Assembly (NCBI GenBank): GCA_963712115.1
Contig: CAVQGX010000059.1
Location: forward strand, 1 to 28,383
DNA length: 28,383 bases
DNA from: an uncultured delta proteobacterium
GTDB lineage: Bacteria > Desulfobacterota > Syntrophobacteria > BM002
Reading direction: 5' to 3'
Position numbers and translations under genes: made by a program. Of the stretch, positions 4,870-18,731 are shown piece after piece; the first letter of the stretch is position 1, and each line of letters starts with the position of its first letter. Below the pieces are notes generated by a model. That model was not told where the DNA came from, searched no databases, and saw only the letters and a program-made list of their open reading frames with translations.

Positions 4870-7203
4870 TCAGCCTAACGGATCATTCTCCACCAGATCC
4901 CAGATTCCGCAAGGGCAGGCTGCAGCGCAAAAACCACAGCCAATACAAAGATCGGGATCTACTAGCATTTCCAAACCGTTTTCCTCTTCCTCTTTCTTGG
5001 AGATGGCCCCCTTGGGACAGATGGTTATGCAGACGCCGCAATCACGGCATGATCCGCAGGAAGAGCACTCCGTGGCACAATGTTCAATGGACTCGAAGCT
5101 CTGCAAGCGGGGGTCGAAGTATTCCAGCTTGATCCGGGAGCGATCAATGATTTGTCGGGTGTCTCCCCGAGGTCGCTTTCCTCCCAGGATGTCGTTTATG
5201 GCCTGGGCCGCGGTGCGCCCGGCGCCGATGGCATCGGTGAGAAGCCCAAGCTTTACCGCATCGCCCAGGGCAAATATCTGGGGATCCGTGGTCTGAAAGA
5301 TGTCATTAACCTCAATAAAGCCGTTCTGGGTTCTCACCGTTTTTGGAAGAAAATCCACATCAGGCTGATCTCCAATGGATATGATCACGGTGTCGGCTGG
5401 AATAACTTCACCGCTTGTTAGTTCTACGCCATCTGCGGTGATTTCCTTGGTAAAGCATGGCCAGCGAAACTTGGCGCCAATTTCTTCCGCTGCCTCTCGT
5501 TCAGCACCGAAAGATAAAGGTGTCTGAATATCAATGAGGGTGATGTCCTCTGCGCCCAGCCTGTGTGCCTCTGTAGCCGCGTCACAACCCACATTTCCCG
5601 CCCCGATTACTACTACCCTTTTTCCGACCTTGGCCTCGCCAGCCTTGCTCTGCCGGAGAAACTGGAGAGCCGGAATCATCCTCTCTTTGCCAGGAACGGG
5701 GAGGATACGAGGTTTTTGCGCTCCCACAGCAATAACTACGAAATCGTAGTCCTCTTTTAGCCTTTCAACCTCTTCGCTCTCCAACTTCTGTTGCAGATGT
5801 ATGTGGGGAAGAGCCTCACGGGCCCGCGCCAGTTCAGCATCTACAATTTCATCGGGAATTCGACTTCTGGGAATAAGGGAGCTTATCTTGCCCCCCAACT
5901 TTTTCTCCAGATCAAAGATAATTGCCTCGTGGCCATGTTGTCGCAGTTGCCAGGCCACAGACAGGCCGCCAGGGCCACCGCCGATAATCGCTATCTTACT
6001 CCCTGACAGGGGTGGAAGTTCAGGCAGTTTGGCCTTCAGACTTGCCTTGCCCAGACTACTCACGTCCACCGGCGTCATGCCGGCCCACTGACGGGTGCAG
6101 CCCTGCATGCAGAGGTTGGGGCAAAGGTAGCCGCAGACTGTTGCGGGAAAAGGCGTATAGGCCAGGGCCATGTCCACGGCCTCATCCACACGACCCTCCC
6201 TGATCAACCGCCAGCGGTCATGGACCGGGATACCGGTGGGACAGCTGGCCTCGCATGGGGGCATGTATGCCTGGTTTTCCCACACCGGAACATAGCGTCT
6301 GAGCTCGCCGTTGGTGATCACTGGAATAGCACTGCGGTCAAGATCGGTGAGGTCACCAATTAGTCCGCCCTTTCCAAGCTCTTGGTCCCACACCTCCTGG
6401 CAGAACTCAGTCATGGAGCGCCGGGCTGCAAAACCCCTTTCCATGGGACTCCTGGCTTCCAGCAGTTGCCACTGCTCCAGGTTAGCAAGTTTTTTATAAA
6501 GTTTGCTTTGATTTATTCTTTCCAAGAAAACCTTGAGATTTTCTTTTAACCACTCCCAGTCCTCGTCAGCTATGGGCACTAGCTTGGCGTCGTTCTGACT
6601 GAACCCTCCATGCGGACCCCGGAAGAATATCTTGCCCGCCACCATCCCGACGCAGGGGCGGTATCCCAGAATATTCTCGGGGTTTTGGCCTTCATGGCCA
6701 CAGACCACCGCAATGCCACCAGCCATGAATTCAGCAAAATAATCCCCCACCGAACCCAAGACCCAGAGCTCCGGCGGATCAAAGCGGGGGTTGTACTTGG
6801 TCATGGTCATACCCCTGGCACCAATGTTGCCGGCAACATAGATCTTGCCCTGGGCCATGGCATTGGCGGTTCCATTGGTGGCATGCCCGTGGACGGTAAT
6901 TTCCGCCCCCGCATTGAGCCAACCCACATCATCTGAGGCTGGCCCCAGAATCTCGATGCGAGTGTTGGAAAAACCCATGGATCCAGTTCTTTGGCCGGGT
7001 GAGCCGACAATTCTGATATTTAGCGGCTCATCTCCCGCCCGCCACAAACGGCCGCCGATTCCATGCTGACCAAAGGCCTCAACTTCTATGTCGCAGTGCC
7101 CACCAGAAACGGCAGATTGGATTATCTCCTCCAACACCCGCGATTCAATCCGGTGGCCGTTTTCCATGCCGGAAATCACATAAGACCGGTCTTTCTGGTT
7201 CAT
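4870..7203 (-). CDS. Glutamate synthase GXGXG (GltB C-terminal) domain fused to a GltD-like FAD/NAD(P)H oxidoreductase and a C-terminal 2x[4Fe-4S] ferredoxin
   Basis: GXGXG beta-helix repeats (GQRTGSMG, GHATNGTANAM, GSVGDYFAEFMAGG), GltD-type Cys clusters (CEASCP, CGYLCPNLCMQGC), FAD motif IIGGGPGGL, pyridine-nucleotide motif IGAGNVG, and CRDCGVCITICP / CIGCGFCAAACP. Confidence 0.9.
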   Translation of the reverse strand: MNQKDRSYVISGMENGHRIESRVLEEIIQSAVSGGHCDIEVEAFGQHGIGGRLWRAGDEPLNIRIVGSPGQRTGSMGFSNTRIEILGPASDDVGWLNAGAEITVHGHATNGTANAMAQGKIYVAGNIGARGMTMTKYNPRFDPPELWVLGSVGDYFAEFMAGGIAVVCGHEGQNPENILGYRPCVGMVAGKIFFRGPHGGFSQNDAKLVPIADEDWEWLKENLKVFLERINQSKLYKKLANLEQWQLLEARSPMERGFAARRSMTEFCQEVWDQELGKGGLIGDLTDLDRSAIPVITNGELRRYVPVWENQAYMPPCEASCPTGIPVHDRWRLIREGRVDEAVDMALAYTPFPATVCGYLCPNLCMQGCTRQWAGMTPVDVSSLGKASLKAKLPELPPLSGSKIAIIGGGPGGLSVAWQLRQHGHEAIIFDLEKKLGGKISSLIPRSRIPDEIVDAELARAREALPHIHLQQKLESEEVERLKEDYDFVVIAVGAQKPRILPVPGKERMIPALQFLRQSKAGEAKVGKRVVVIGAGNVGCDAATEAHRLGAEDITLIDIQTPLSFGAEREAAEEIGAKFRWPCFTKEITADGVELTSGEVIPADTVIISIGDQPDVDFLPKTVRTQNGFIEVNDIFQTTDPQIFALGDAVKLGLLTDAIGAGRTAAQAINDILGGKRPRGDTRQIIDRSRIKLEYFDPRLQSFESIEHCATECSSCGSCRDCGVCITICPKGAISKKEEEENGLEMLVDPDLCIGCGFCAAACPCGIWDLVENDPLG

Positions 7204-7246
7204 AGCATTATCTCCGAAACAAATACTTAATAGTTAGTAACCAAAC

Positions 7247-7268
7247 AGCATAGGGCATAGAGCATAGA
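7247..7268 (+). repeat. Heptamer array (GCATAGR)x3, left arm flanking the four-helix-bundle gene
   Basis: AGCATAGGGCATAGAGCATAGA; reverse-complementary to the array at 7705-7762. Confidence 0.85.
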
Positions 7269-7294
7269 GAAAAAAAACAGAACTGTTTGGTGTG

Positions 7295-7648
7295 TCATAA
7301 AGTGTATTGGAAACTAGTAATTTGTCGGCATAAGCTATCGAGCCGATCTAATAAAGAATCCATAGTCTCGTTGTTTATAAGCTCTCTCGTCTCCAATAAA
7401 ATGACAATATTAGCGTTCTCGTATGTGGACCTTCGTGCAATGTCCAGGAAACGTCTGAACTCTTTACTTGAAGAAGAACCTGAGCCTTCAGATATGTTAT
7501 TTGACATGGACATTCCGGAGCCCCTAAGCTGGTCGGCAAAACGGTATAATCATTTCCTTTCAAGCTCATCTGCAATATCAAAGAGTTCATTAGCTATTTC
7601 GATTGCCAACTGCCAGATTCGTAGATCTTGAAATCTAAATTTTGCCAT
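7295..7648 (-). pseudogene. Four-helix-bundle protein (23S rRNA intervening-sequence protein family) with an in-frame TGA at codon 33
   Basis: Manual translation: MAKFRFQDLRIWQLAIEIANELFDIADELERK*LYRFADQLRGSGMSMSNNISEGSG...KEFRRFLDIARRSTYE...ITSFQYTL (117 codons). Matches the family pattern F.DL..WQ.A...QLR....S...NI.EG...EF..FL.IA..S..E. TGA at 7550-7552. Confidence 0.9.
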
Positions 7649-7704
7649 GGTTCTGTGCCCCTTTCGTCTGCTAGAGAGTTTAACTATGCGCCTTTAAGTT
7701 TTGT

Positions 7705-7762
7705 CCCTATGCCCAATGCTCTATGCCCTATGCCCTATGCTCTTTGCCCTATGCTCTATGCC
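7705..7762 (+). repeat. Heptamer array (CYCTATG)x8, right arm flanking the four-helix-bundle gene
   Basis: CCCTATG CCCAATG CTCTATG CCCTATG CCCTATG CTCTTTG CCCTATG CTCTATG. Confidence 0.9.
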
Positions 7763-7780
7763 TAATCGCCACAAGCTTGA

Positions 7781-9415
7781 CTAGACGACGAAACTTATGC
7801 TTAACCGCTCGGCCGCTGGTTTATCGTTGATTCCAATGGCATCGGACATGCCAATGGGCAGGGAGGTCGAGCGGCCCAGGGGCGCCAGAATCTTCCTCAG
7901 CTCGGTGTCAAAGGAGAGAAACACATCCACCACTCTTTCCGCCACCTTTTCCGGATCCAGACGGCGATATAACCGTGGGTCCTGGGAGGTGATGCCCTTG
8001 GGGCAGAGGCCAACATTACAGAGATTACAGCGGTCGGATTCCGAGCCAATGCAGCCAGCAGCGGCCTGCATAATGTATTTGCCAATCTGCACCGCACTTG
8101 CTCCCAGCATAATGAGGGCGGCGGCATTGGCTGCCAGGTTACCTTGTTTTCCCACACCACCTGCGGCAATCAGCGGAATCTCGTTCTGCATTCCCACCTT
8201 GACCAGGTTCAGATAACAGTCGCGAATATTGCTGGCAATGGGGTATCCCATGTGATTCATGGAAACGTTGTAGGCTGCTCCGGTACCACCATCTTCACCA
8301 TCAATGCAGAGGGCGGCAGCATAGGGATTCCGGGTCAAATTATTGAGAACCGCAAGTGCAGTGGAGGTACCAGAAATCTTTGGATAGACAGGCACCCGAA
8401 AACCCCAGGCCATATACATTGACTGGATCATCTTAGCCACTGATTCTTCGATGGAGTACTTGGTCTGGTGCGTGGGCGGACTGGGAAGACTCACGCCAGC
8501 GGGAACCCCCCGTATAGCAGCGATAAGGTTGTTCACCTTGTACCACATTAACAGGCCGCCATCGCCGGGCTTGGCCCCCTGGCCGTATTTGATTTCCACC
8601 GCACAGGGGTCTTCCTTCATATCCGGCAAGGCATGGATGATCTCATCCCAGCCGAAATAACCGCTGGCAATCTGCAAAATTGTGTACTTCAAAAAGCGGG
8701 AGCGCAACAGTCTCGGGGGGCATCCCCCTTCGCCAGTGCACATACGGACCGGCATCCCCAGCTCCTCATTGAGGTAGGCCACGCCCATTTGCAATCCTTC
8801 CCACATGTTGGGAGAAAGGGCCCCGAAGGACATGGAGCCAATCATCAGGGGATAAATCTCTCGCACCGGCGGGATCCAACCTTGTTCCCTCTGCAGCCGA
8901 ATGTTTTCCTCGGCTGGAAGAATGCGCCCCAGAAGTGTCCGCAGCTCAAATTCATGGCGCCCTGCGTCGAGAGCGGGGTCAGTGAGCATGGAGATTCTGG
9001 TAAACTTGATTTGATCCAGAATGCCGCCCACCACATTCCTGCGACCCCCACGCCGGCGCGGTTGACCTCCCCGGTCGATGTGGTATTTGAGCTTGTCCGC
9101 TTCGTCGTTTCGGTAAACCATTATGCATTCGTTGGGGCAGACCATGGAGCACATGCCGCAGCCGACACAAGCATAAGCAGGGTCGGTCTTCTGCCTGATG
9201 CCATAGAAGACCTTGTAGACATTGGAGGGCTCTCTATCCAACCCCATGGGGGTTTGCACCAGCCTCTGGCGATGGACCCCCAGGTCAATGGCATGAACCG
9301 GGCAGACGGCGGTGCAGCGCCCGCACAAGCTGCATTTATCCTTTTGCCAAAGGATCTGCCAAGGCAAATCTTTGGGGCTTAGTGTTGAAGGGGTAATAGT
9401 TCCGTTTGCCGACAT
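7781..9415 (-). CDS. Glutamate synthase FMN-binding subunit (GltB2-type) with an N-terminal 2x[4Fe-4S] ferredoxin
   Basis: CSLCGRCTAVCP and CVGCGMCSMVCP; MSFGALS, TGEGG, QIASGYFG, EIKYGQGAKPGDGGLL, DGEDGGTGA; Fe-S motif C...CNLCNVGLCPKGITSQ. Confidence 0.93.
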   Translation of the reverse strand: MSANGTITPSTLSPKDLPWQILWQKDKCSLCGRCTAVCPVHAIDLGVHRQRLVQTPMGLDREPSNVYKVFYGIRQKTDPAYACVGCGMCSMVCPNECIMVYRNDEADKLKYHIDRGGQPRRRGGRRNVVGGILDQIKFTRISMLTDPALDAGRHEFELRTLLGRILPAEENIRLQREQGWIPPVREIYPLMIGSMSFGALSPNMWEGLQMGVAYLNEELGMPVRMCTGEGGCPPRLLRSRFLKYTILQIASGYFGWDEIIHALPDMKEDPCAVEIKYGQGAKPGDGGLLMWYKVNNLIAAIRGVPAGVSLPSPPTHQTKYSIEESVAKMIQSMYMAWGFRVPVYPKISGTSTALAVLNNLTRNPYAAALCIDGEDGGTGAAYNVSMNHMGYPIASNIRDCYLNLVKVGMQNEIPLIAAGGVGKQGNLAANAAALIMLGASAVQIGKYIMQAAAGCIGSESDRCNLCNVGLCPKGITSQDPRLYRRLDPEKVAERVVDVFLSFDTELRKILAPLGRSTSLPIGMSDAIGINDKPAAERLSISFVV

Positions 9416-10509
9416 GTTTCAACCTCCCGCCGATCAGGGCGAATTATGGCAGTGTCTAAATGCATTGGCTGAAAGTCTTGGCTTTTATCCCGATCGGGAA
9501 TTGCCGCATCCAGACCACACATTTCCGATGAGATGGCGTAAAGACCTGGTTTACCCCCCACCACACCCGGCCGCAGTTTCTTCCGGTCCTGAACAATAAA
9601 TAAAGTTTTGTCCGGCAGGCATCCCATCACACAGTTGGGCCCATCTATGATCATTCTTCTGCAAGTGTGCTTTAACTGCTTGAGGAAAGCTGCATTGGGA
9701 TGGTTTTCCAAATCCTGATCCTGAAGGGGGGTTATTAAATGCTTGTACATCTCGATTCCCAGTCCCAACCTGTAGTGGAGAAAGTGGAGGATGTGGGTGA
9801 AGACTTCCGAATCTGATTGATAGCCCATGTAACCTGGGAATCCCCGCGAGGTAAGAAACTCCCTAATTGGGATAAAGGCGGTGTTTTCGCCGTTGGTCAT
9901 GGTGGCAATCCCTTGGATAAAGAAAGGGTGGCAGGCATAGAGATTTATGGCGTAGTTGGTATTCTGCCGTCCCTGGGCCAGCATGACCCTGGCCTGGAGT
10001 TCTTTGCGATCGAGTTGTAGATATTCAGCCACGGTCATGGGATCGCCAATTTCCTTGATCATGATCACGTCGGGCCAAAAGCTGTAAACAATCATGTCCT
10101 CAGCTTCTTCTCCCATGCGCCGAAGTTGAAGGCGGATCATCAGCAACCGATGCTTTATTTCAGCATCGCTCAGCCCTTCCCAGTCCTCGGGTAACTCATA
10201 AGCCCGGACGAGATAGATGTCCCGTTTGGGAACTCCGTAAGGTGGCCTCTTGGGAATCTTGATGGAGATCTTGTACTTGGTCATGAAACCAACATCCATC
10301 ATGAACCGATCCAGCTTCTTCAAGCCTTCATTGCTGAAGATGCCAGAGAGGATGGGAGCACCATCCAACTCTTCAAAGGGCCCTCCAAGATCAGAAAAAA
10401 AGAGGCCCACCCCGGAACCATCATGCCCCTCCCTCATCACATCCAGTGCTTGGATGGCCATCATGGGAGACTGGGGTTCATCGCTAGTGATTGCAAATAA
10501 ACGGCACAT
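9379..10509 (-). CDS. Glutamate synthase class II glutamine amidotransferase subunit (GltB1-type)
   Basis: N-terminal nucleophile Cys (MCRL), DGSG, QGRQNTN, CHPF, NGEN, SDSE, DGP, DRKKLRP; SD GGGAGG upstream; overlaps the next gene by 37 nt. Confidence 0.92.
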   Translation of the reverse strand: MCRLFAITSDEPQSPMMAIQALDVMREGHDGSGVGLFFSDLGGPFEELDGAPILSGIFSNEGLKKLDRFMMDVGFMTKYKISIKIPKRPPYGVPKRDIYLVRAYELPEDWEGLSDAEIKHRLLMIRLQLRRMGEEAEDMIVYSFWPDVIMIKEIGDPMTVAEYLQLDRKELQARVMLAQGRQNTNYAINLYACHPFFIQGIATMTNGENTAFIPIREFLTSRGFPGYMGYQSDSEVFTHILHFLHYRLGLGIEMYKHLITPLQDQDLENHPNAAFLKQLKHTCRRMIIDGPNCVMGCLPDKTLFIVQDRKKLRPGVVGGKPGLYAISSEMCGLDAAIPDRDKSQDFQPMHLDTAIIRPDRREVETCRQTELLPLQH

Positions 10510-11200: not shown

Positions 11201-12505
11201 ATGGTGTCAAAATCACTGGAAACACAGCGTGTGGCCTCGGGTGTGAGCCAGTTAGATCGGCTTTTGGGGGGCCTTTACATCGGCGACAACGTGGTTTGGC
11301 ATGATGATGCCGGTAGCCTTGCCTCCGTTTTTTGTCTCAATTTTATTCAGGCATCGCAGGCCCAAAACAAGCCCCTAATCTATGTGACCTTTGACCGCTC
11401 ACCTAAGAATCTCTTAGACAAGCTAGGACCTTTAGGTGAAAATCCCAATCTTACCATCTTGGATTGTTTTACCTACGGTAAGGGTGCCGGTTCTCCGATT
11501 TTCCTCAAATTTTATGAGGAAGTCGAGTCCGAATGCCAGATCATACAAGTAGAAGAGCCGCGCGATATGGAACACTTCATGGACACCCTCTATGGTGTTC
11601 ATGCCACAATGGAAGGAGACGTTCGCTTTGTCTTCGAAAGTATAACTGGCATGCAAGAGCTCTGGGGTGGAGAAGAACATATAGTTAATTTCTACTCCCA
11701 TTCCTGTCCGAGACTCTACGAACTGAATACCATTGCTTACTGGATATTAGAGAAGAGTGCCCATTCGCCTCGACTGAGAGCCCAGATCAATCAGATTGCT
11801 CAGGTGGCAATAGATCTGGCAATCAAAAGAGGGACTACATCACTGACCATTTTGAAAGCTGAGAAGCGAAGCCTGGAAAATCAGCACAAGCCGCACAATT
11901 ATTGGACCAAAGATCTGACTGTAACTTTTGATGATGAAAGGCGCACCTCGCGCCGTGTTGATTTTGGCTTGCGTCTCAAGGAGCTTCGCAGCAAAAGAGG
12001 GTTGTCGCAGACCGAGCTCGCCAAGCTAGTTGGAGTCACACCCAGTACTATTTCCCAGGTTGAGAGCAACTTGATTTACCCTTCTTTGCCGGCTCTTATG
12101 AAAATGGCGGAAGTGCTCTCTGTGGAAATAAGCTCTTTTTTTCAAGAACAAGCGGAACCTAAGAAGCGTCTTATCTTTACTGCAGCCGAAGCAGTGGAAG
12201 TAAAGTTCCCCGATCTGCCTGAAGGGGCAGTCCTGGCAAGACTGTTGTTACCGGTTGATTTTGATCCCAAGGCCGAACCTTATTTAATTGAGATTTCGCC
12301 CAAGGAAAAGCTTCCTTCTCATTTTTTCATTCACAAAGGTGAAGAGTTGGGATACCTGCTCTCTGGCAGATTGCAGGTGAAATTAGAAAAGTCGGCTTAC
12401 AGCCTTCGTGCGGGGGATGTAATCTACCTCACCTCGGAAATGCCTACCCAGTGGGAGAATCCCGGCCCAGGTGTGGCCAAGCTTCTTTGGATCAAGGTGA
12501 AATGA
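11201..12505 (+). CDS. Transcriptional regulator: KaiC/RecA-like domain with degenerate Walker A + XRE HTH + cupin
   Basis: SGVSQLDRLLGGL..G start typical of KaiC/RadA; YVTFD, ILDCF, RFVFESIT; HTH RLKELRSKRGLSQTELAKLVGVTPSTISQVE...PSL; cupin HKGEELGYLLSG...GDVIY...WENPG. Confidence 0.88.
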   Translation: MVSKSLETQRVASGVSQLDRLLGGLYIGDNVVWHDDAGSLASVFCLNFIQASQAQNKPLIYVTFDRSPKNLLDKLGPLGENPNLTILDCFTYGKGAGSPIFLKFYEEVESECQIIQVEEPRDMEHFMDTLYGVHATMEGDVRFVFESITGMQELWGGEEHIVNFYSHSCPRLYELNTIAYWILEKSAHSPRLRAQINQIAQVAIDLAIKRGTTSLTILKAEKRSLENQHKPHNYWTKDLTVTFDDERRTSRRVDFGLRLKELRSKRGLSQTELAKLVGVTPSTISQVESNLIYPSLPALMKMAEVLSVEISSFFQEQAEPKKRLIFTAAEAVEVKFPDLPEGAVLARLLLPVDFDPKAEPYLIEISPKEKLPSHFFIHKGEELGYLLSGRLQVKLEKSAYSLRAGDVIYLTSEMPTQWENPGPGVAKLLWIKVK

Positions 12506-12507
12506 GG

Positions 12508-12860
12508 CAAAGGGCATAGAGCATAGGGCATAGAGAAATACAGCTGGCAGAAAAAGCTATCTAACCGCAGAGTACGCAGAGGTCGCAGAGAAGATCTAAT
12601 TCAGAACCACGAAGGGCACGAAGATCACGAAGAAAACAATCGCTTAAAGGCAACCCGCGGAGCGGGTTGTCCCGATGGATCCCATCGGGACAAATGGGGA
12701 AGCTCTTGAGCGATCCTTAAATTTTATGATTTCTTGTCCTTTTTCGTGTACTTCGTACTTTCGTGTTTTCGTGGTTGAATTTTTTATCCGTGAAATCCGT
12801 GTGTCCCGCTTCGGCGGGACCCGTGCCTAAAAAATAATCTCTTTGTGACCTTTGTGTGGT
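12508..12860. repeat. Nested palindromic element, family C copy 1, between convergent genes
   Basis: GCATAGR, CGCAGAG and CACGAAG arrays on the left and TTCGTG arrays on the right; core stem ATCGCTTAA/TTGAGCGAT enclosing hairpins CAACCCGC-GGA-GCGGGTTG and TCCCGATG-GATCC-CATCGGGA; also GTCCCGC-TTCG-GCGGGAC. Confidence 0.85.
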
Positions 12861-12870
12861 GAGAGAGTCG

Positions 12871-13743
12871 CTACTTGGTTTTCCTGTCCCTGGGATTAGT
12901 TGAGTAAACCCCTTTTTCCTCCCAGAGAGCCTCTCGCTGGCGCAAAATACGTAGAGTCTTCCCAGGGTCCTGGATGCTCATTGCCGTGAGCAATGCGTTA
13001 ATCAGGCTGGTAGCAGCTGTAAATGATTCTATGAATGAGTCCAGCTGACAGCTTGCTGTTAGCACCCAGTGGGCGTAACTGGCTAAAGGCGAGAGGGGGG
13101 AATCGGTTATCGCTCCCACCCTAGCCCTTTTATTTCGTGAATGTTGGAGAACCTCCAAGGTAATCTGCGTATATCGGGGAAAGCTGATACCCACAACTAG
13201 GTCGGATCTTCCCAACCCCTGCAATATATCCCACATCTCTCCGTGGCCCGGTACGAGAAGTTGAGCCTGTTTGCCCAGAAAACGGAGATATGTTGCCAAT
13301 GTCAGAGCAGGCGCATGAGCTCCACGAAGTCCCACCACAAAAATCCTCTCGGCTGACTGCAGGTCCGCCACCGCTCGTTCGAAGATATCAAGTGAGAGAT
13401 TCCTCAGGGTCTGAGACAGGTTGTGAATGTCCTCTTGGAGGACCTTTACAACCACGTCGCCCGTCTGCCGCACGTGGTCAACAGTATGTTCCAGGCGGGT
13501 CACAGTGGAAAGGCGATCTTGTAAGCCCTGGCGGAACTTTCTCTGCATGCCCGGATACCCATCAAAACCCAGGGCTTGAGCCAATCGCACCACAGTGGCT
13601 TCGCTCACACCCACGTTTTGAGCGAGCTGCGAGGCCGTGAGGAAGATGGCCTCCTCGTAGTGTTCTATGATGTAGTGCATGATCCGCCGTTGGGCTGGAG
13701 TGAGACGAACTTTATTATCTACTAGGAGTTCTTGGAATGGCAT
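12871..13743 (-). CDS. MurR/RpiR-family transcriptional regulator (HTH + SIS)
   Basis: LTPAQRRIMHYI...TASQLAQNVGVSEATVVRLAQALGFDGYP; SIS domain IFVVGLRG...ISFPRYT...AITDSPLSPL. Confidence 0.95.
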   Translation of the reverse strand: MPFQELLVDNKVRLTPAQRRIMHYIIEHYEEAIFLTASQLAQNVGVSEATVVRLAQALGFDGYPGMQRKFRQGLQDRLSTVTRLEHTVDHVRQTGDVVVKVLQEDIHNLSQTLRNLSLDIFERAVADLQSAERIFVVGLRGAHAPALTLATYLRFLGKQAQLLVPGHGEMWDILQGLGRSDLVVGISFPRYTQITLEVLQHSRNKRARVGAITDSPLSPLASYAHWVLTASCQLDSFIESFTAATSLINALLTAMSIQDPGKTLRILRQREALWEEKGVYSTNPRDRKTK

Positions 13744-13759
13744 GAAGAAAATCCTTCAT
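13742..13759. promoter_or_regulatory. Palindrome over the RpiR SD and start codon; candidate operator
   Basis: ATGAAG-AAAATC-CTTCAT. Confidence 0.45.
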
Positions 13760-13821
13760 TAAAAAAATATCTTGCATTTCTACTTAACAATTTACTAGTA
13801 TTCAAGTCAAACTAAAAATAA

Positions 13822-14062
13822 ATCCAGGAGATAGAATCCAGAAGTCAGAATCCAGTAGGCAAAGAGCATAGAGAAATACAGCTGGCAGCTGACAGCTTGC
13901 AGCAGGCAGCAAGAGGAAAGCTCAAAGGGGAAGTCGTAAAAACCGTATAAGTCGTAGAAGTCGATAGATCAGCTCCTGATCCCTGACCCCCGACCCCTGG
14001 TCCCTTGCCCTGAACCTTGCGCCTTGAGCCCTGCGCCTGCTGTATACTGACTACTGGATTCT
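13822..14062. repeat. Composite heptamer/nonamer-arm element upstream of the GS-like gene
   Basis: AGAATCCAG...TCAGAATCCAGTAG at the left end and CTGACTACTGGATTCT at the right; internal GCAGCTG, AAGTCGTA, CCCTGAC and GCCTTG arrays. Confidence 0.75.
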
Positions 14063-14114
14063 TTGTGGTTCATCTAGGATAGGATCTTTATAGCGAAAGG
14101 AGTTTGTTGTCGCA

Positions 14115-15425
14115 ATGGCGAGTCTGAAACAAATAAAAGAAAAACTCAAAGGTTTGGATTCTACTAAGATTTTCTTTACCGATCTCAACGGTAGAAACCG
14201 GAGCTTGCCGGTGAATCCAGCAAACATGGACTCCATAATCAAGAAAGGGATCGGTTTCGATGGCAGCTCCATTGCCGGGATTGCCACAGTTGCTGACAGT
14301 GACCGACTGCTTGTCCCCCTTCAGGAAAGCTTCCGAGTGGTTGAATTTAAAGACGAGAAACTTGGTTTTTTCATAGGTAAGATTCAAAATGCTCAGGGAG
14401 AAAGATCAAAATCTGATCCCCGGGCCGTACTGGAGAATATTGTAGCCCAGGCTGAATCAGAGTTCGGCTGCAGATTCCTTCTGGGTCCAGAACACGAGTT
14501 TTTCTTGCTAACCTCTGACTGTTTCGGTGAGAATATTCACTCTGACAGCGCCGGCTATTTTCATTGCGACCCCCACGACAAGGGAGAGGTGGTAAGGAAG
14601 AGGATTGTTGAAGTTTTGGACAAGTGCGGCATCAAGTTCGAGAAAGCACACCATGAGGTTACTGCCTCACAGCATGAGATAAACCTGGAGTGTCTGGATC
14701 CTTTGGGAGCTGCCGATAGAACCGTGCTCTTCAATTACGTAACTCAAAAAGTGGCAGCGGAAAACGGCCTGCACGCCACTTTCATGCCCAAGCCTTTTGA
14801 TGGACAAAACAGAAATGCCTTTCATATCCATCTTTCCATGATGGATAAGAGGGGGAAGAATTTGTTCTACCAGGCAAAGGCAAAGCATAATTTAAGTAAG
14901 ACCGCCCGCCAGTTCATGGGTGGTATCATTAAATATGCCAGGGAGACCTCCATTGTAATGGCATCTACTTTCAATTCCTATAAGGCCTACGTGGTCGAGA
15001 GGGAGGCTCCCGTGGTGCGTGGTTGGGGCCTGAAAAACAGAAGCTCCATGGTTAGAGTCCCTTACGCCAGCAGTACGGAGAGTACCAGAATAGAGCTGAG
15101 AAACCCTGATCCCACCGGTAATCCTTACCTGCAAATGGCAGTACTGATTGGTATGGGCCTTCACGGTATAAAAGAGAACCTTGACTGTGGCCAGCCAGAT
15201 ATGGGCAGCACATACAAAGCAAGAAGAAAATACCGCGTCTGGGACAAGAGATATCTTCCCAAGTCCATGTTCGAGGCTCTGGCGGAAGCGGAAAAGAGTA
15301 AATTTCTCAGAGAGTTACTGGGAGAGCGGGTATACAGCAATTACATGGCTATCAAGATAGCAGACTGGGAAGATCACAGAACCCATGTTACGCCGAGAGA
15401 GCACAGTAAGTATCTGAGTATGTGA
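14115..15425 (+). CDS. glnA: Glutamine synthetase type I family protein with an altered glutamate-binding site
   Basis: GFDGSSI, DPR, GPEHEFF, GYF, HHEV..SQHEI, FMPKP, HIHLS, EAP, NRS..VRVP, RIELRNPDP are present; NGSG is replaced by NRNA and SYKRL by SYKAY. The family is secure, the substrate is not. Confidence 0.88.
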   Translation: MASLKQIKEKLKGLDSTKIFFTDLNGRNRSLPVNPANMDSIIKKGIGFDGSSIAGIATVADSDRLLVPLQESFRVVEFKDEKLGFFIGKIQNAQGERSKSDPRAVLENIVAQAESEFGCRFLLGPEHEFFLLTSDCFGENIHSDSAGYFHCDPHDKGEVVRKRIVEVLDKCGIKFEKAHHEVTASQHEINLECLDPLGAADRTVLFNYVTQKVAAENGLHATFMPKPFDGQNRNAFHIHLSMMDKRGKNLFYQAKAKHNLSKTARQFMGGIIKYARETSIVMASTFNSYKAYVVEREAPVVRGWGLKNRSSMVRVPYASSTESTRIELRNPDPTGNPYLQMAVLIGMGLHGIKENLDCGQPDMGSTYKARRKYRVWDKRYLPKSMFEALAEAEKSKFLRELLGERVYSNYMAIKIADWEDHRTHVTPREHSKYLSM

Positions 15426-15462
15426 TTTCACCGATGTGAGATGAATTATCGCATAGCGTTAA

Positions 15463-15569
15463 GGGCTCAAGGCGCAGGGCGACTTAGGTCATGAGGCTTC
15501 GCCGTCATTAGGTCACTACGCTACGCTGTCATTTATTGTAAGAGGTAGAGGGCCAGAAGATTGCGGATT
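15463..15569 (+). repeat. 107-bp dispersed repeat, family B copy 1
   Basis: About 100/107 identical to 19032-19138 by manual alignment; followed by a (CTCYATG)x4 arm ending at ~15612. Confidence 0.93.
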
Positions 15570-15634
15570 GCGAAAAAATTGAACTCTATGCTCCATGCTC
15601 TATGCTCTATGCTAAAACAAAGGAGAAACTCAGA

Positions 15635-16708
15635 ATGGAAGAGTGGATTGAACAATTACAGAACAGTGTAAACACACTGGAGAAACTCAAGGAATATATC
15701 AACGTTACCCCGCAGGAAGAGGAGGGTATTACCACTCTCAATACTCAGTGGGGTACGACGCCTTACTTTGCCTCTTTGATGATCCGCGATGATCCCAACT
15801 GTCCGATCAGAAAGCAGGTTGTCCCCTCAGTAAAGGAGAAAGAAAACCGCTACGGTATTCCAAACTATTTGATCTGGAAAGAAAATCGCGCCACAGATGA
15901 GATTAGACCGGACTCCATTGCCAGACAGTACTTTGACCGCATAGCCTTTACTGTCACTGACGTCTGTGCCAACTACTGCCGGCACTGTTTCCGCAAAGAA
16001 CTGGTTGTGGACCGAGATCTCAAGCTGAGAATGGACGTAGAAGAAGGTCTCGATTGGATCCGAGAACATGAAGAGATTCGCGACGTCCTCGTCACTGGTG
16101 GGGATCCTTTTATCCTCTCAGACGAAAGGATCGAATACCTCATCCGTAAGTTGCGTGAGATTCCCCATATCGAAATGATTCGTTTCGGTACCCGCACACC
16201 CATCGTGCTGCCCCACAGAATTACCCAAAGTCTGATGAAGGTGCTGAGTAAATACCACAGGGTTCCCTTGTGGGTGAACACCCAGTGCAATCATCCCAAT
16301 GAAATCACCGAAAAAACAGCCCAAGCAGTTTACGACCTTCTCTCTTGCGGGGTTAATGTGGGCAATCAGGCTGTGCTGCTAAAGGGAATCAATGACGACG
16401 TGGAGTCTTTCAGGAAGCTGCACCAAAAACTGCTCACTGTTCGGATTCGGCCTTATTATGTCTTTTATTGCGAACCGGCTCCGGGAATTGACCATTTCCG
16501 CACCCCAGTCGAGAAAGGAGCCGAACTCATTCGAGACGCCCTTCGAGGCCATACCACCGGCCTGGCCCAACCCATGTACGTCATAGCCACAAATATCGGC
16601 AAGATTCCTTTAATGCCTGACTATTACCTAGTGGATAAAAACGAGAAAGAGTACACCTTGAGGAATTACAAAGGTGAGATAACCACATTGCCGAATATTC
16701 CGGAGTGA
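15635..16708 (+). CDS. KamA-family radical-SAM/PLP 2,3-aminomutase, substrate uncertain
   Basis: CANYCRHCFR (CxxxCxxC), TGGDP, IRFGTRTP, NHP, NQAVLLKGIND, RPYY, HFRT, LRGHTTG and PLP-lysine GKIP. Start moved to ATG 15635 (SD AAGGAG 15620-15625); the ATG at 15602 lies in a heptamer repeat. Confidence 0.92.
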   Translation: MEEWIEQLQNSVNTLEKLKEYINVTPQEEEGITTLNTQWGTTPYFASLMIRDDPNCPIRKQVVPSVKEKENRYGIPNYLIWKENRATDEIRPDSIARQYFDRIAFTVTDVCANYCRHCFRKELVVDRDLKLRMDVEEGLDWIREHEEIRDVLVTGGDPFILSDERIEYLIRKLREIPHIEMIRFGTRTPIVLPHRITQSLMKVLSKYHRVPLWVNTQCNHPNEITEKTAQAVYDLLSCGVNVGNQAVLLKGINDDVESFRKLHQKLLTVRIRPYYVFYCEPAPGIDHFRTPVEKGAELIRDALRGHTTGLAQPMYVIATNIGKIPLMPDYYLVDKNEKEYTLRNYKGEITTLPNIPE

Positions 16709-16710
16709 TG

Positions 16711-17080
16711 AGGCATGGGGCATAGAGCATGGAGCAAGGGGACAGCGAGAAAGGCAGGAAATAATTAACCGCAGACGAACGCAGATGAACGCGGACGAGC
16801 GCAGACAGACCGTTTATTAACCACGAAGAACACGAAGGACACGAAGAGAAGATCGCTTAAAGGATGCATGAGAGAACCTAGAGCACAAAGATAAGCTAGC
16901 ATATTTTTGTGCTCTAGGTTCCCTCATTGGTCCCGATGATCCCATCGGGACCACCCGCGGTGCGGGTGATCTTTAAGCGATCCTTTCCTCGACTCAATCT
17001 TTTCTCACATCCTGTACATCTTGTTAATCCTGTCCAATCTCTATCTTTTCACCTGTTCGTGCTCTGCGCGACCTTAGCGG
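16711..17080. repeat. Nested palindromic element, family C copy 2, between convergent genes
   Basis: GCATRG, CGCAGA and CACGAAG arrays; perfect 12-bp stem GATCGCTTAAAG (16851-16862)/CTTTAAGCGATC (16971-16982) enclosing three hairpins. Confidence 0.85.
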
Positions 17081-17086
17081 ATAAAT

Positions 17087-17122
17087 AAAAAGAGGCCCAG
17101 CTGCGCTGGGCCTCTTTCTTTT
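17087..17122. terminator. Bidirectional intrinsic terminator
   Basis: AAAGAGGCCCAGC-TGC-GCTGGGCCTCTTT with A-rich and T-rich flanks, between convergent genes. Confidence 0.85.
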
Positions 17123-17138
17123 CTCTATTAGAACCCAA

Positions 17139-18731
17139 TTAGCTGTTCAACACTTCCATGGCTTCCTCAAGGTAGCACTCGGTGAGGAAAGGTATACCCG
17201 TGACCTTGGCGCACTCCTCGGTAAGCGACATGAGTTCTCTTCGGGTGATGGCTGGCAGTGAGAAGCACCGGGCACCAGCCAGAAGTTGTTGGAGACCCAC
17301 CCTGAGCCTGTCAGCGTAGCTGAAAATACCCACGGCCCCAAGGGGGATGTTCTTCATCTCATCCTTGCCCACGATATCAGCAACCTGCTCCCAGCATACG
17401 AAAATCTCCGCCGGGGTACTCCCAAATTCACTCACCGTCTTGGGAAGATCGCCTTTCTCAATCCATTTGGTGATGTTCTTGCCCACCATGCCGGGAATCA
17501 TCAAGGCCCGGCCCATACAAACCGCTTTCGCAAATGGCGCGCCCAGCGCCAGGGCCTTGAATATACCGTCTTCACTGGAAAATCCTCCTGCGAAAGCCAG
17601 GTCAGGAACCCTCTCGCCCTTGTCAGCCAAAATCTTGCTGAACTTGTAAGCCATGGAGTGAATGTAGAGACTGGGGATGCCCCACTCTTCCATCATTCGC
17701 CAGGGAGACATGCCCGTGCCGCCGGGTGCCCCATCAATGGTAAGCAGGTCTATTTTCGCTCTGGATCCCCACTTGATGGCCATTGCCAATTCCCGCAAAG
17801 GGTAAGCGCCTGTCTTGAGGGTGATGCGCTTAAATCCGAGTTTCCTGAGGCGATCGACCTCGGCGTAGAAATCTTCCTCGCCGATGAACCCCAGTCTACT
17901 ATGACGCTCGAATTCCTTGATGGCGCCACTAGCGAACGCTTTCTGGTGCGTAGGTGAGGAGGGGTCCGGAGTTACAATGTAGCCACGCCTCTGGAGTTCC
18001 TGAGCCCTTTCCAGGCTGTCAACTTTAATCTCGCCACCGATGCACTTGGCCCCTTGACCCCACTTGAGCTCTATGTTGTCCAGGCCGTGCTTGTCAATGA
18101 TGTACTCGGCGACACCGAGCCTGGTATCCTCAACATTCATCTGCACCAGCATTTCGCCGTAGCCTTGATGGTAGCGACGATACTGCTCAATACGCCGGTC
18201 CATATCAGGTGCATTTTTTATCTTGCCGTTCTTGTTAAGCTCCAGTGCCGGGTCGATACCGCAGACGTTCTCACCGCAGATGAGAGTGACGCCGCTAATA
18301 GCCGCGCCCACGGCGAAATGCTCCCAGTTGGCGCGGGCTATCTCTGTGGAACCCAGGGCACCGGTGAATACCGGAACCTTCATTTTAACCTTGGTGTCCC
18401 AGCCATACTCGGTTTCTGTGCTCACCGAGGGGAAAGTGGCGGTGTCCGGGTCGCCGACAACGCCTTCCGGCATGCCCCTGGCACCCATGGCGTATCCCTG
18501 GATGTTGAGATGGGAGTAATCGACGGGATAGTCCTTGTCAGCTCCCGCCGTTACCTTGCCGAAGGGACCGGGGTAGATCACCTCGCGGCCTCTAAAGGTG
18601 GATTTAAACACCTCGCAGTTCCCGCGGCAGCCGTCAGTACAGCGGGAGCAGAGGCCAGACATGGGTACCACTGATTTGGACCTGTTGAATGTTCTGGTTG
18701 CGTCATTGGCATTTGGACGTTGCAAGTTCAT
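17139..18731 (-). CDS. Stand-alone FMN-binding glutamate synthase family protein
   Basis: 530 aa; N-terminal CSRCTDGCRGNC; TGALGST, GENVCG, IELKWGQGAKCIGGE, LKTG, TIDGAPGGTGMSP, AGGFS..DGIFKALALGA, MGRA; SD AGAGGAG. Confidence 0.9.
   Translation of the reverse strand: MNLQRPNANDATRTFNRSKSVVPMSGLCSRCTDGCRGNCEVFKSTFRGREVIYPGPFGKVTAGADKDYPVDYSHLNIQGYAMGARGMPEGVVGDPDTATFPSVSTETEYGWDTKVKMKVPVFTGALGSTEIARANWEHFAVGAAISGVTLICGENVCGIDPALELNKNGKIKNAPDMDRRIEQYRRYHQGYGEMLVQMNVEDTRLGVAEYIIDKHGLDNIELKWGQGAKCIGGEIKVDSLERAQELQRRGYIVTPDPSSPTHQKAFASGAIKEFERHSRLGFIGEEDFYAEVDRLRKLGFKRITLKTGAYPLRELAMAIKWGSRAKIDLLTIDGAPGGTGMSPWRMMEEWGIPSLYIHSMAYKFSKILADKGERVPDLAFAGGFSSEDGIFKALALGAPFAKAVCMGRALMIPGMVGKNITKWIEKGDLPKTVSEFGSTPAEIFVCWEQVADIVGKDEMKNIPLGAVGIFSYADRLRVGLQQLLAGARCFSLPAITRRELMSLTEECAKVTGIPFLTECYLEEAMEVLNS

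Follow-up and report, generated by a model that had tools for sequence, protein, structure and literature searches.

Which reactions are catalysed by a glutamine synthetase (GS) family protein and an aminomutase of the radical S-adenosylmethionine (SAM) family KamA that are encoded in tandem amid genes of nitrogen assimilation? This question is raised by a 28,383-base contig (C59, analysed over its whole length and referred to as the window in the rest of the text) of a 4.9-Mb genome in 70 contigs. A preliminary description of this DNA had reported the two genes, called GS-like and KamA-like hereafter, together with a gene for an RpiR regulator, and had located them between two glutamate synthase (GOGAT) loci. 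All three open reading frames (ORFs) were found there, flanked by GOGAT genes on one side and by a gene for a protein with a partial Glu_synthase domain on the other (see the table). Family membership, the retention of catalytic residues, the linkage, the genes nearby and the pocket changes that are invariant within each clade are observed here; from them we infer every substrate named below. On this basis we tentatively propose that KamA-like and GS-like are a glutamine 2,3-aminomutase and a β-glutamate-amidating ligase, encoded by a putative two-gene operon for β-glutamate and β-glutamine metabolism.

Catalytic cores and substrate pockets of the two enzymes

KamA-like scored above the cut-off of the generic KamA model TIGR00238 (286.4 bits, cut-off 199.2) but below those of the models for the individual specificities, namely arginine 2,3-aminomutase (TIGR04468, 364.2 bits vs 600), glutamate 2,3-aminomutase (TIGR04368, 352.6 bits vs 650) and lysine 2,3-aminomutase AblA/KamA (TIGR03820, 350.8 bits vs 525.4). 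A search of the ESM Atlas returned generic KamA clusters alone. Its residues were numbered after lysine 2,3-aminomutase (LAM) by means of a phmmer alignment to PDB 2A5H (E 1.4e-96, residues 13-363), and were counted over 86 members of its clade. The cluster cysteines of the CxxxCxxC motif (C125, C129 and C132), R134 and K337 are kept in all 86. From the structure of LAM, we take R134 to bind the carboxylate, K337 to be the lysine that carries pyridoxal phosphate (PLP), and D293 and D330 to bind the ε-amino group. D293 is replaced by glutamate in 86/86 proteins and D330 by alanine in 85/86, and the glycine loop is two residues shorter (GGGG of LAM becoming T-N-I-G-K). The paired aspartates for a cationic side chain are lost and the lysine that would hold a carboxylate is absent; the resulting Glu/Thr/Asn pocket would suit a neutral carboxamide.

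KamA-like differs from both of its nearest characterised types. With the lysine 2,3-aminomutases (KamA of Clostridium subterminale, 2A5H; AblA) it has the CxxxCxxC motif, R134 and K337 in common; in contrast, it is 357 rather than 416 aa long, lacks most of the LAM_C domain and carries the D293E and D330A replacements and the shorter loop. The glutamate 2,3-aminomutase Eam (Clostridioides difficile type), whose signature we take to be Lys332/Asn369, is a KamA-family enzyme too and makes a C5 β-amino acid. However, the lysine expected of such an enzyme at LAM position 293 was found in none of the 86 proteins, and the glutamate that stands there in all of them would repel a carboxylate.

When a maximum-likelihood tree was built from 37 KamA-family proteins, the 19 KamA-like rows grouped as one clade (support 100/100, stem 0.73), separate from the lysine-type and Eam-like groups. 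A gap is also seen in identities over an even sample of 401 genomes of the phylum, where orthologues were at least 69% identical to KamA-like (14 genomes) and the next matches at most 47%. Among the closest paralogues examined in the phylum (43-47% identity), all were lysine aminomutases of the D/D type, bar one variant with Gln at position 293. A short KamA-family variant (L115 274-1341, genome G022; 355 aa) has Gln at LAM D293, together with an LDTPYGK loop, and scores below every equivalog cut-off. No member of the arginine 2,3-aminomutase family (TIGR04468) was found among 401 genomes of another phylum or 14 control genomes.

GS-like matched PDB entries 8TFB, 4LNI and 8OOL best, over its full length (E 1e-83 to 1e-77), but fell under the NCBIfam cut-offs for GlnA (TIGR00653, 354.1 bits vs 429.15) and for γ-glutamylputrescine synthetase (229 bits vs 650). 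We aligned 53 GS-like proteins, that of the window and those of the loci fetched from other genomes (see below), against the genome's own GlnA, and mapped positions by motif onto what we take to be the residue numbering of Salmonella GS. D50, E129, E131, Y179, E212, E220, N264, H269, H271, E327, R339, R344, E357 and R359 are kept in 53/53 proteins and S53 in 52/53, so that all checked metal, ATP, ammonium and flap residues, which GS-like has in common with the type I-α glutamine synthetases of Bacillus and methanogens, are retained in 52-53 of the 53. The pocket, in contrast, carries the replacements G265R (53/53), G267A (53/53), R321A (52/53) and L322Y (53/53), and flap residues 324-326 are changed relative to type I-α glutamine synthetase. 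Two of these positions, 265 and 321, correspond to Gly246 and Arg303 of MtGS; the accessible part of PMC10799026 counts both among the residues that bind glutamate and calls them "perfectly conserved" in the GS of bacteria and archaea. It also ties R62 of BsGS to feedback inhibition by glutamine; at this position, where the genome's own GlnA has Arg, 50/53 GS-like proteins have Thr, Ser or Pro, mostly Thr.

Because its catalytic residues are kept and the glutamate-binding ones replaced, the product of GS-like would be the primary amide of an acid bound differently from L-glutamate; judging from the retained residues, the enzyme should still form an acyl-phosphate that is attacked by free ammonium. 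GS-family enzymes usually diversify at the amine site, and the γ-glutamyl-amine synthetases PuuA, GlnA3 and GmaS keep the glutamate site and have an ammonium site remodelled for a larger amine. GS-like presents the opposite pattern, an intact ammonium site and an altered site for the α-end of glutamate.

When 1.84 billion cluster representatives (50% clustering) were searched with GS-like, its clade proved isolated. The N-R-N-A and K-A-Y signature is borne by two full-length representatives, at 59% and 44% identity, and no other full-length protein among the matches listed exceeds 43%. Six proteins lacking the signature were aligned (four of these other representatives, a further one at 43% and the GlnA of the genome), and all of them have the canonical motifs. 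Within the clade, the protein of genome G123 reads NRSALH instead of N-R-N-A-F-H. At the top of the representative search stood two very long predicted proteins, P0124 of 4424 aa, with 12 separate stretches resembling GS, and P0126 of 2757 aa, with 6 of them (32-33% identity to the query); these may be tandem arrays of GS domains or artefacts of gene calling.

Neither gene encodes the organism's ordinary enzyme. A canonical glnA lies on contig C16 (517.6 bits vs a cut-off of 429.15), and a lysine-type aminomutase that keeps D293 and D330 is encoded on contig C27 (502 bits vs 525). Contig C16 also holds an Eam-like gene for a protein of 429 aa resembling glutamate 2,3-aminomutase (611 bits vs 650), with Lys at LAM 293. 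The preliminary description had held that the two enzymes of the window are not the ordinary ones and that both keep a catalytic core around an altered substrate pocket, which agrees on each count with what we found.

Linkage and occurrence of the pair

A collection of species-representative genomes contained 341 stretches encoding a relative, of which the best 80 were fetched. The preliminary description had let its proposal stand or fall with the co-occurrence of GS genes of the NRNA/SYKAY type and variant KamA genes, and GS-like adjoins KamA-like in 61 of these 80 loci. In 60 of the 61 it immediately precedes KamA-like in the same orientation, at a distance of -3 to 369 nt, and in the remaining one it lies downstream on the opposite strand. 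Fourteen loci lack GS-like despite at least 1.5 kb of upstream sequence; the rest are cut by contig ends (four) or masked (one, L001). The reverse search, from the divergent GS-like protein P0125, gave 14 metagenome loci, 13 of which hold a GS-like gene. KamA-like is adjacent in 10 of the 13, two are cut by contig ends and one has another KamA-family gene. Divergent metagenome pairs at 57% and 62-65% identity to the window retain both signatures. Over 64 loci, the identities of GS-like and KamA-like to their counterparts in the window co-vary (Spearman 0.85, the relatives not being independent).

In the even sample, KamA-like was present in 14/401 genomes and GS-like in 5/401. In four of the five GS-like genomes one contig carries both genes; the GS-like gene of the fifth lies at the edge of its contig. 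Strong as it is, the linkage runs one way, in that GS-like depends on KamA-like but KamA-like does not depend on GS-like.

The pair is conserved among sulfate-reducing bacteria of sediments. DNA near-identical to the window (at least half of the sampled words) was detected in 14 sequencing runs labelled estuary, marine sediment, sediment, mangrove or plain metagenome, one being unlabelled. One GS-like cluster includes a metagenome-assembled genome (MAG) named Ca. Scalindua sediminis by its source, Scalindua being a marine genus.

A candidate route between β-glutamate and L-glutamine

We propose that KamA-like would act as a SAM-, PLP- and [4Fe-4S]-dependent 2,3-aminomutase interconverting L-glutamine and β-glutamine, with a distal pocket (Glu at LAM D293 and Ala-Thr-Asn for the D330 loop) that binds the neutral carboxamide. 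GS-like, with ATP and free ammonium, would amidate a dicarboxylic amino acid seated differently in the pocket; β-glutamate is the best candidate for this substrate, which would make β-glutamine the product. The pair would thereby link β-glutamate, β-glutamine and L-glutamine. We favour this scheme because these are the simplest substrates that fit both enzymes, the glutamine/glutamate context and known biology. Since GS-like depends on KamA-like and not vice versa, we regard KamA-like as the central enzyme, to which GS-like would be an accessory feeding in or salvaging β-glutamate. The flow could run in either of two directions. The repressors and uptake systems found next to the pair suggest that β-glutamate and β-glutamine would be assimilated into the GS/GOGAT pool, and the saline habitats and the lost feedback arginine suggest that β-glutamine would be made and maintained as a compatible solute.

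The genes that accompany the pair in other genomes point to glutamine and β-glutamate. Over 90 loci, a GlnHPQ-like ABC transporter is found in 12, an M20 hydrolase in 13, an asparaginase-family amidase in 5, and an ATP-grasp gene with a long paralogue resembling glutamate 2,3-aminomutase in 6, sometimes interleaved with the pair. One adjacent binding protein passes the NCBIfam GlnH equivalog (334 bits vs a cut-off of 303) and reaches 83-88 bits with the ArgT and ArtJ models. At some loci without GS-like, KamA-like stands in a row with the transporter genes.

To our knowledge, radical-SAM 2,3-aminomutases have been characterised for lysine, glutamate and arginine alone. A literature search, whose coverage did not extend to subscription journals and supplements, yielded no paper naming a glutamine 2,3-aminomutase, in agreement with the preliminary description, whose author knew of none. 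Nor did it yield a paper that combines KamA, radical SAM, aminomutase and glutamine synthetase, or one on this pair. As far as their accessible parts go, the papers that deal with an aminomutase and β-glutamine are about methanogen or other osmolytes (PMC1224877, PMC3017947, PMC9128505). The accessible part of PMC1224877 (2005) names no β-glutamine genes beyond the general GS of Methanohalophilus, and our searches found no later paper naming further ones.

Two known systems resemble parts of the proposed scheme. According to the accessible part of PMC1224877, the GS of Methanohalophilus portucalensis makes β-glutamine, a natural compatible solute, from β-glutamate. Amidation of β-glutamate by a GS-family enzyme using ATP and ammonium is what we propose for GS-like; however, the Methanohalophilus enzyme is described there as the organism's general GS, of relaxed specificity, whereas GS-like exists beside a canonical GlnA, has a rebuilt pocket and is coupled to an aminomutase. 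AblA and AblB, in what is accessible of PMC1224877 and PMC3017947, are encoded in an operon of two genes, one for a KamA-family aminomutase and one for a modifying enzyme, and lead to the osmolyte N-ε-acetyl-β-lysine. There the partner is a GNAT acetyltransferase, whereas here it is a GS-family ligase, and the lysine-binding residues of the aminomutase are absent.

It is possible, if somewhat doubtful, that KamA-like is the first glutamine 2,3-aminomutase and GS-like the first dedicated β-glutamate:ammonia ligase, and that they are the missing bacterial genes for β-glutamine and β-glutamate. If so, a fourth specificity of radical-SAM 2,3-aminomutases, on an amide, would extend that chemistry, and a GS-family enzyme rebuilt at the acyl site yet retaining ammonium would be unusual. 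The pair, which occurs in hundreds of sediment genomes judging from the 341 matching stretches, would be widespread in Desulfobacterota of marine and estuarine sediments and present in the Ca. Scalindua MAG. β-Glutamine would then be an overlooked osmolyte or nitrogen currency of anoxic sediments, possibly exchanged with the methanogens that produce it. Confirmation of the function would change the annotations "lysine 2,3-aminomutase" and "glutamine synthetase" as well as models of nitrogen and osmolyte flow in anoxic sediments.

Several observations weigh against the β-glutamine proposal. GS-like was not found (E <=1e-125) in 10 of the 14 KamA-like genomes of the even sample, KamA-like often standing alone. 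The N-S-Y-K-A-Y DNA pattern was sought in 8 of these 10 KamA-only genomes (all but G390 and G005) and was absent from them, both positive controls matched, and a lone match in G086 lay in a frame full of stops and was attributed to chance. A KamA-like subclade at 72-76% identity adjoins unrelated genes (pyruvate kinase, glycosyltransferase and dihydroorotate dehydrogenase). β-Glutamate and α-glutamate have the same carboxylate-to-carboxylate length, and for this reason the loss of R321 is not specifically predicted by β-glutamate. The glutamate at position 293 could pair equally well with a cationic side chain, such as that of ornithine, 2,4-diaminobutyrate, arginine or lysine. No Eam-like orthologue was found in the other four GS-like genomes (G123, G185, G283 and G350), where the best match is 45% identical, so that an endogenous source of β-glutamate is missing there, and we rejected a constant supply of GS-like by a glutamate aminomutase of the same organism; none was found in the 10 KamA-only genomes either. 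Adjacent binding proteins come in two types, one carrying G68A/T70F/G119A and the other H156F at what we take to be the ligand positions of GlnBP. With such different substitutions, one common ligand cannot be deduced from them. The regulators, too, vary by lineage, being RpiR, GntR-FCD or none.

Some of these observations agree better with other assignments. In one of them, which we consider unlikely, GS-like is a dedicated, feedback-insensitive, high-Km L-glutamate:ammonia ligase, and KamA-like, as a glutamine 2,3-aminomutase, turns the resulting L-glutamine into β-glutamine along a linear osmolyte path. Such a pair would be self-sufficient in the genomes without an Eam-like gene, and the replacement of the feedback arginine, which the genome's GlnA keeps, would suit it, as would the runs labelled estuary and marine sediment and the Ca. 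Scalindua sediminis MAG in a GS-like cluster. An enzyme acting on L-glutamate is nonetheless hard to reconcile with the replacement of the glutamate-binding residues Gly246 and Arg303 of MtGS across GS-like (53/53 and 52/53), a canonical glnA is already present in the genome, and the adjacent GntR and RpiR repressors and uptake systems look more catabolic.

The new Arg265 and the loss of R321 would fit a distal carboxylate that is displaced, for instance in a substrate with a shorter chain or of inverted stereochemistry, the pocket of KamA-like is shortened (Glu for Asp, and a loop two residues shorter), and the asparaginase-family gene is adjacent in 5/90 loci. These features would accord with the same logic of amide ligase and aminomutase on another substrate, such as aspartate/asparagine/isoasparagine, D-glutamate/D-glutamine or 2-aminoadipate/homoglutamine. 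We regard this reading as improbable: we know of no isoasparagine-, D-glutamine- or homoglutamine-type product that is an abundant metabolite, whereas β-glutamine is a natural one, and the GlnH-equivalog transporter and Eam-like neighbours favour C5 glutamate chemistry.

It is also unlikely that KamA-like acts as a 2,3-aminomutase on ornithine, 2,4-diaminobutyrate, arginine or lysine, the charge of the basic side chain being balanced by Glu293, and that GS-like modifies its product or catalyses an unrelated step. The acidic residue at 293 in 86/86 proteins and the frequent occurrence of KamA-like by itself speak for such an enzyme, as does the arginine 2,3-aminomutase model as top NCBIfam equivalog, although its 364 bits remain below the cut-off of 600 and barely exceed the scores of the glutamate and lysine models. 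Yet the second acidic residue, D330, is lost in 85/86, and the intact ammonium site and gained arginine of GS-like imply an anionic acyl substrate rather than a diamino acid. Moreover, the neighbouring transporter is GlnH-like (334 bits) and not ArgT/ArtJ-like (83-88 bits), and a D/D-type lysine aminomutase already exists in the genome. Finally, that a glutamine synthetase and a lysine 2,3-aminomutase of the ordinary kind, as both are named in public annotations, lie together by chance is very improbable and already contradicted at the sequence level, since both proteins score under the equivalog cut-offs, their defining substrate residues are replaced across both clades, canonical copies of both are found elsewhere in the genome and the adjacency persists to 57% and 62% identity.

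Surroundings of the pair in the window

The surroundings of the pair belong to nitrogen assimilation, comprising GlnD, a split GOGAT set, the partial Glu_synthase protein and a GAF-ANTAR regulator. KamA-like probably starts at ATG 15635 and not at 15602, because AAGGAG lies 9 nt upstream of the former and a length of 357 aa is shared by most of the 120 best homologues.

Table. Positions of the three-gene module and of the features around it in the window
Feature	Positions	Strand	Evidence or remarks
Split GOGAT-type genes	4870-10509		Pfam/NCBIfam domains
Left copy of the composite direct repeat bracketing the module	12502-12700	+	Sub-motifs ACCCGCGGNGCGGGT, GATCCCATCGGGAC
RpiR/MurR-family regulator	12871-13743	-	Pfam SIS 1.8e-16 and HTH_6 9.2e-15; divergent from the GS-like/KamA-like pair
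Divergent intergenic region, 371 nt	13744-14114		Contains copies of the genome-wide GCATAGAG-type repeat
GS-like gene, 436 aa, GSI-α type	14115-15425	+	Gln-synt_N and Gln-synt_C, E 6e-99
Spacer between GS-like and KamA-like	15426-15634		Elsewhere -3 to 369 nt, often <=20 nt
KamA-like ORF	15602-16708	+	Radical_SAM and LAM_C; probable start ATG 15635, giving 357 aa
Right copy of the composite direct repeat bracketing the module	16708-16990	+	Sub-motifs ACCCGCGGNGCGGGT, GATCCCATCGGGAC
Terminator-like hairpin, 13 pairs	17089-17117	+	Between the converging KamA-like gene and 530-aa gene
530-aa protein, partial Glu_synthase FMN domain	17139-18731	-	Pfam Glu_synthase 3.6e-15, residues 283-412; no NCBIfam match

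The preliminary description had counted RpiR as part of the module. In the window the regulator does stand divergently beside the pair, but a homologue occurs there in only 5/90 loci, all of them close relatives, and in two lineages with the order KamA-like then GS-like a GntR-FCD regulator takes its place. RpiR is lineage-specific and no conserved part of the module. Its HTH_6 and SIS domains pass the Pfam gathering score, and it reached no NCBIfam equivalog (best 76 bits vs 378). The 530-aa gene is found beside the pair in 6/90 loci, including the distant L044 and L049, where its product is 67-68% identical and the gene divergent from GS-like, and its product may be functionally linked to the pair. 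Hdr/FlpD-type genes upstream in 9/90 loci were set aside, since they seem to owe their place to a chance arrangement peculiar to a lineage.

The genome contains just two copies each of the sub-motifs ACCCGCGGNGCGGGT and GATCCCATCGGGAC, one on either flank of the RpiR/GS-like/KamA-like module, within two copies of a composite repeat of about 200-280 nt that each start at the stop codon of the preceding gene. These bracketing repeats suggest that the module entered the genome, or was rearranged, as a single cassette. Short tandem repeats of the GCATAGAG type fill the intergenic regions at 12502-12550, 13847-13888, 15584-15612 and 16708-16739 and occur genome-wide; GCATAGAGCATAG is present in 100 copies on 37 of the 70 contigs, compared to about 0.15 expected. 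No riboswitch or structured leader was detected over 12500-17300, where Rfam at E<=1 gave chance-level matches to small RNAs and microRNAs alone, well under the gathering scores, and the RNA folds no better than shuffles (z -1.48 for 13744-14114 and +1.24 for 15426-15634). The sigma-54 site TGGCAC-N5-TTGCW was not found upstream of GS-like and occurs 10 times in the window vs 15.9 expected.

Both genes are represented in metatranscriptome contigs, which come from four runs in two studies and include a single piece spanning 15617-16708, carry-over of DNA being possible. The GCATAGAG-type repeats create spurious joints in such contigs. Among the pieces listed, none bridges the spacer between GS-like and KamA-like.

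Several further genes related to those of the pair were noted on other contigs and in other genomes. On C27, the lysine-type aminomutase gene is followed by two ATP-grasp genes resembling D-Ala-D-Ala ligase and by a gene for a 594-aa protein without an NCBIfam match (L087 7487-12694). On C16, 3.5 kb downstream of the canonical glnA, the Eam-like gene (429 aa) forms a triad with genes for an ATP-grasp_3 protein (408 aa) and an M20 hydrolase (390 aa; L086 9011-12728). Homologous triads lie beside the pair or are interleaved with it in other genomes, and may constitute a system for ligation and hydrolysis of β-glutamate. Long KamA-family paralogues of 530-600 aa with an N-terminal extension of about 170-220 residues are encoded at L025 4929-6557, L045 10786-12405, L055 169-1974 and L102 3615-5414; their best NCBIfam model is glutamate 2,3-aminomutase (341 bits vs 650), and those of L025 and L045 have Ser and an inserted SYRN motif in place of D293.

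Two other ORFs of the window deserve mention. A 376-aa ORF at 9379-10509 on the minus strand overlaps the end of the GltB-FMN/ferredoxin gene and has no Pfam or NCBIfam match at the thresholds used; from its position, it could encode the amidotransferase part of the split GOGAT. The gene at 11201-12505 on the plus strand encodes an unusual fusion of an N-terminal KaiC/RecA-like ATPase domain (weak match) with a PuuR-like C-terminal part made of HTH_3 and cupin domains, and this fusion adjoins the three-gene module in close relatives as well.

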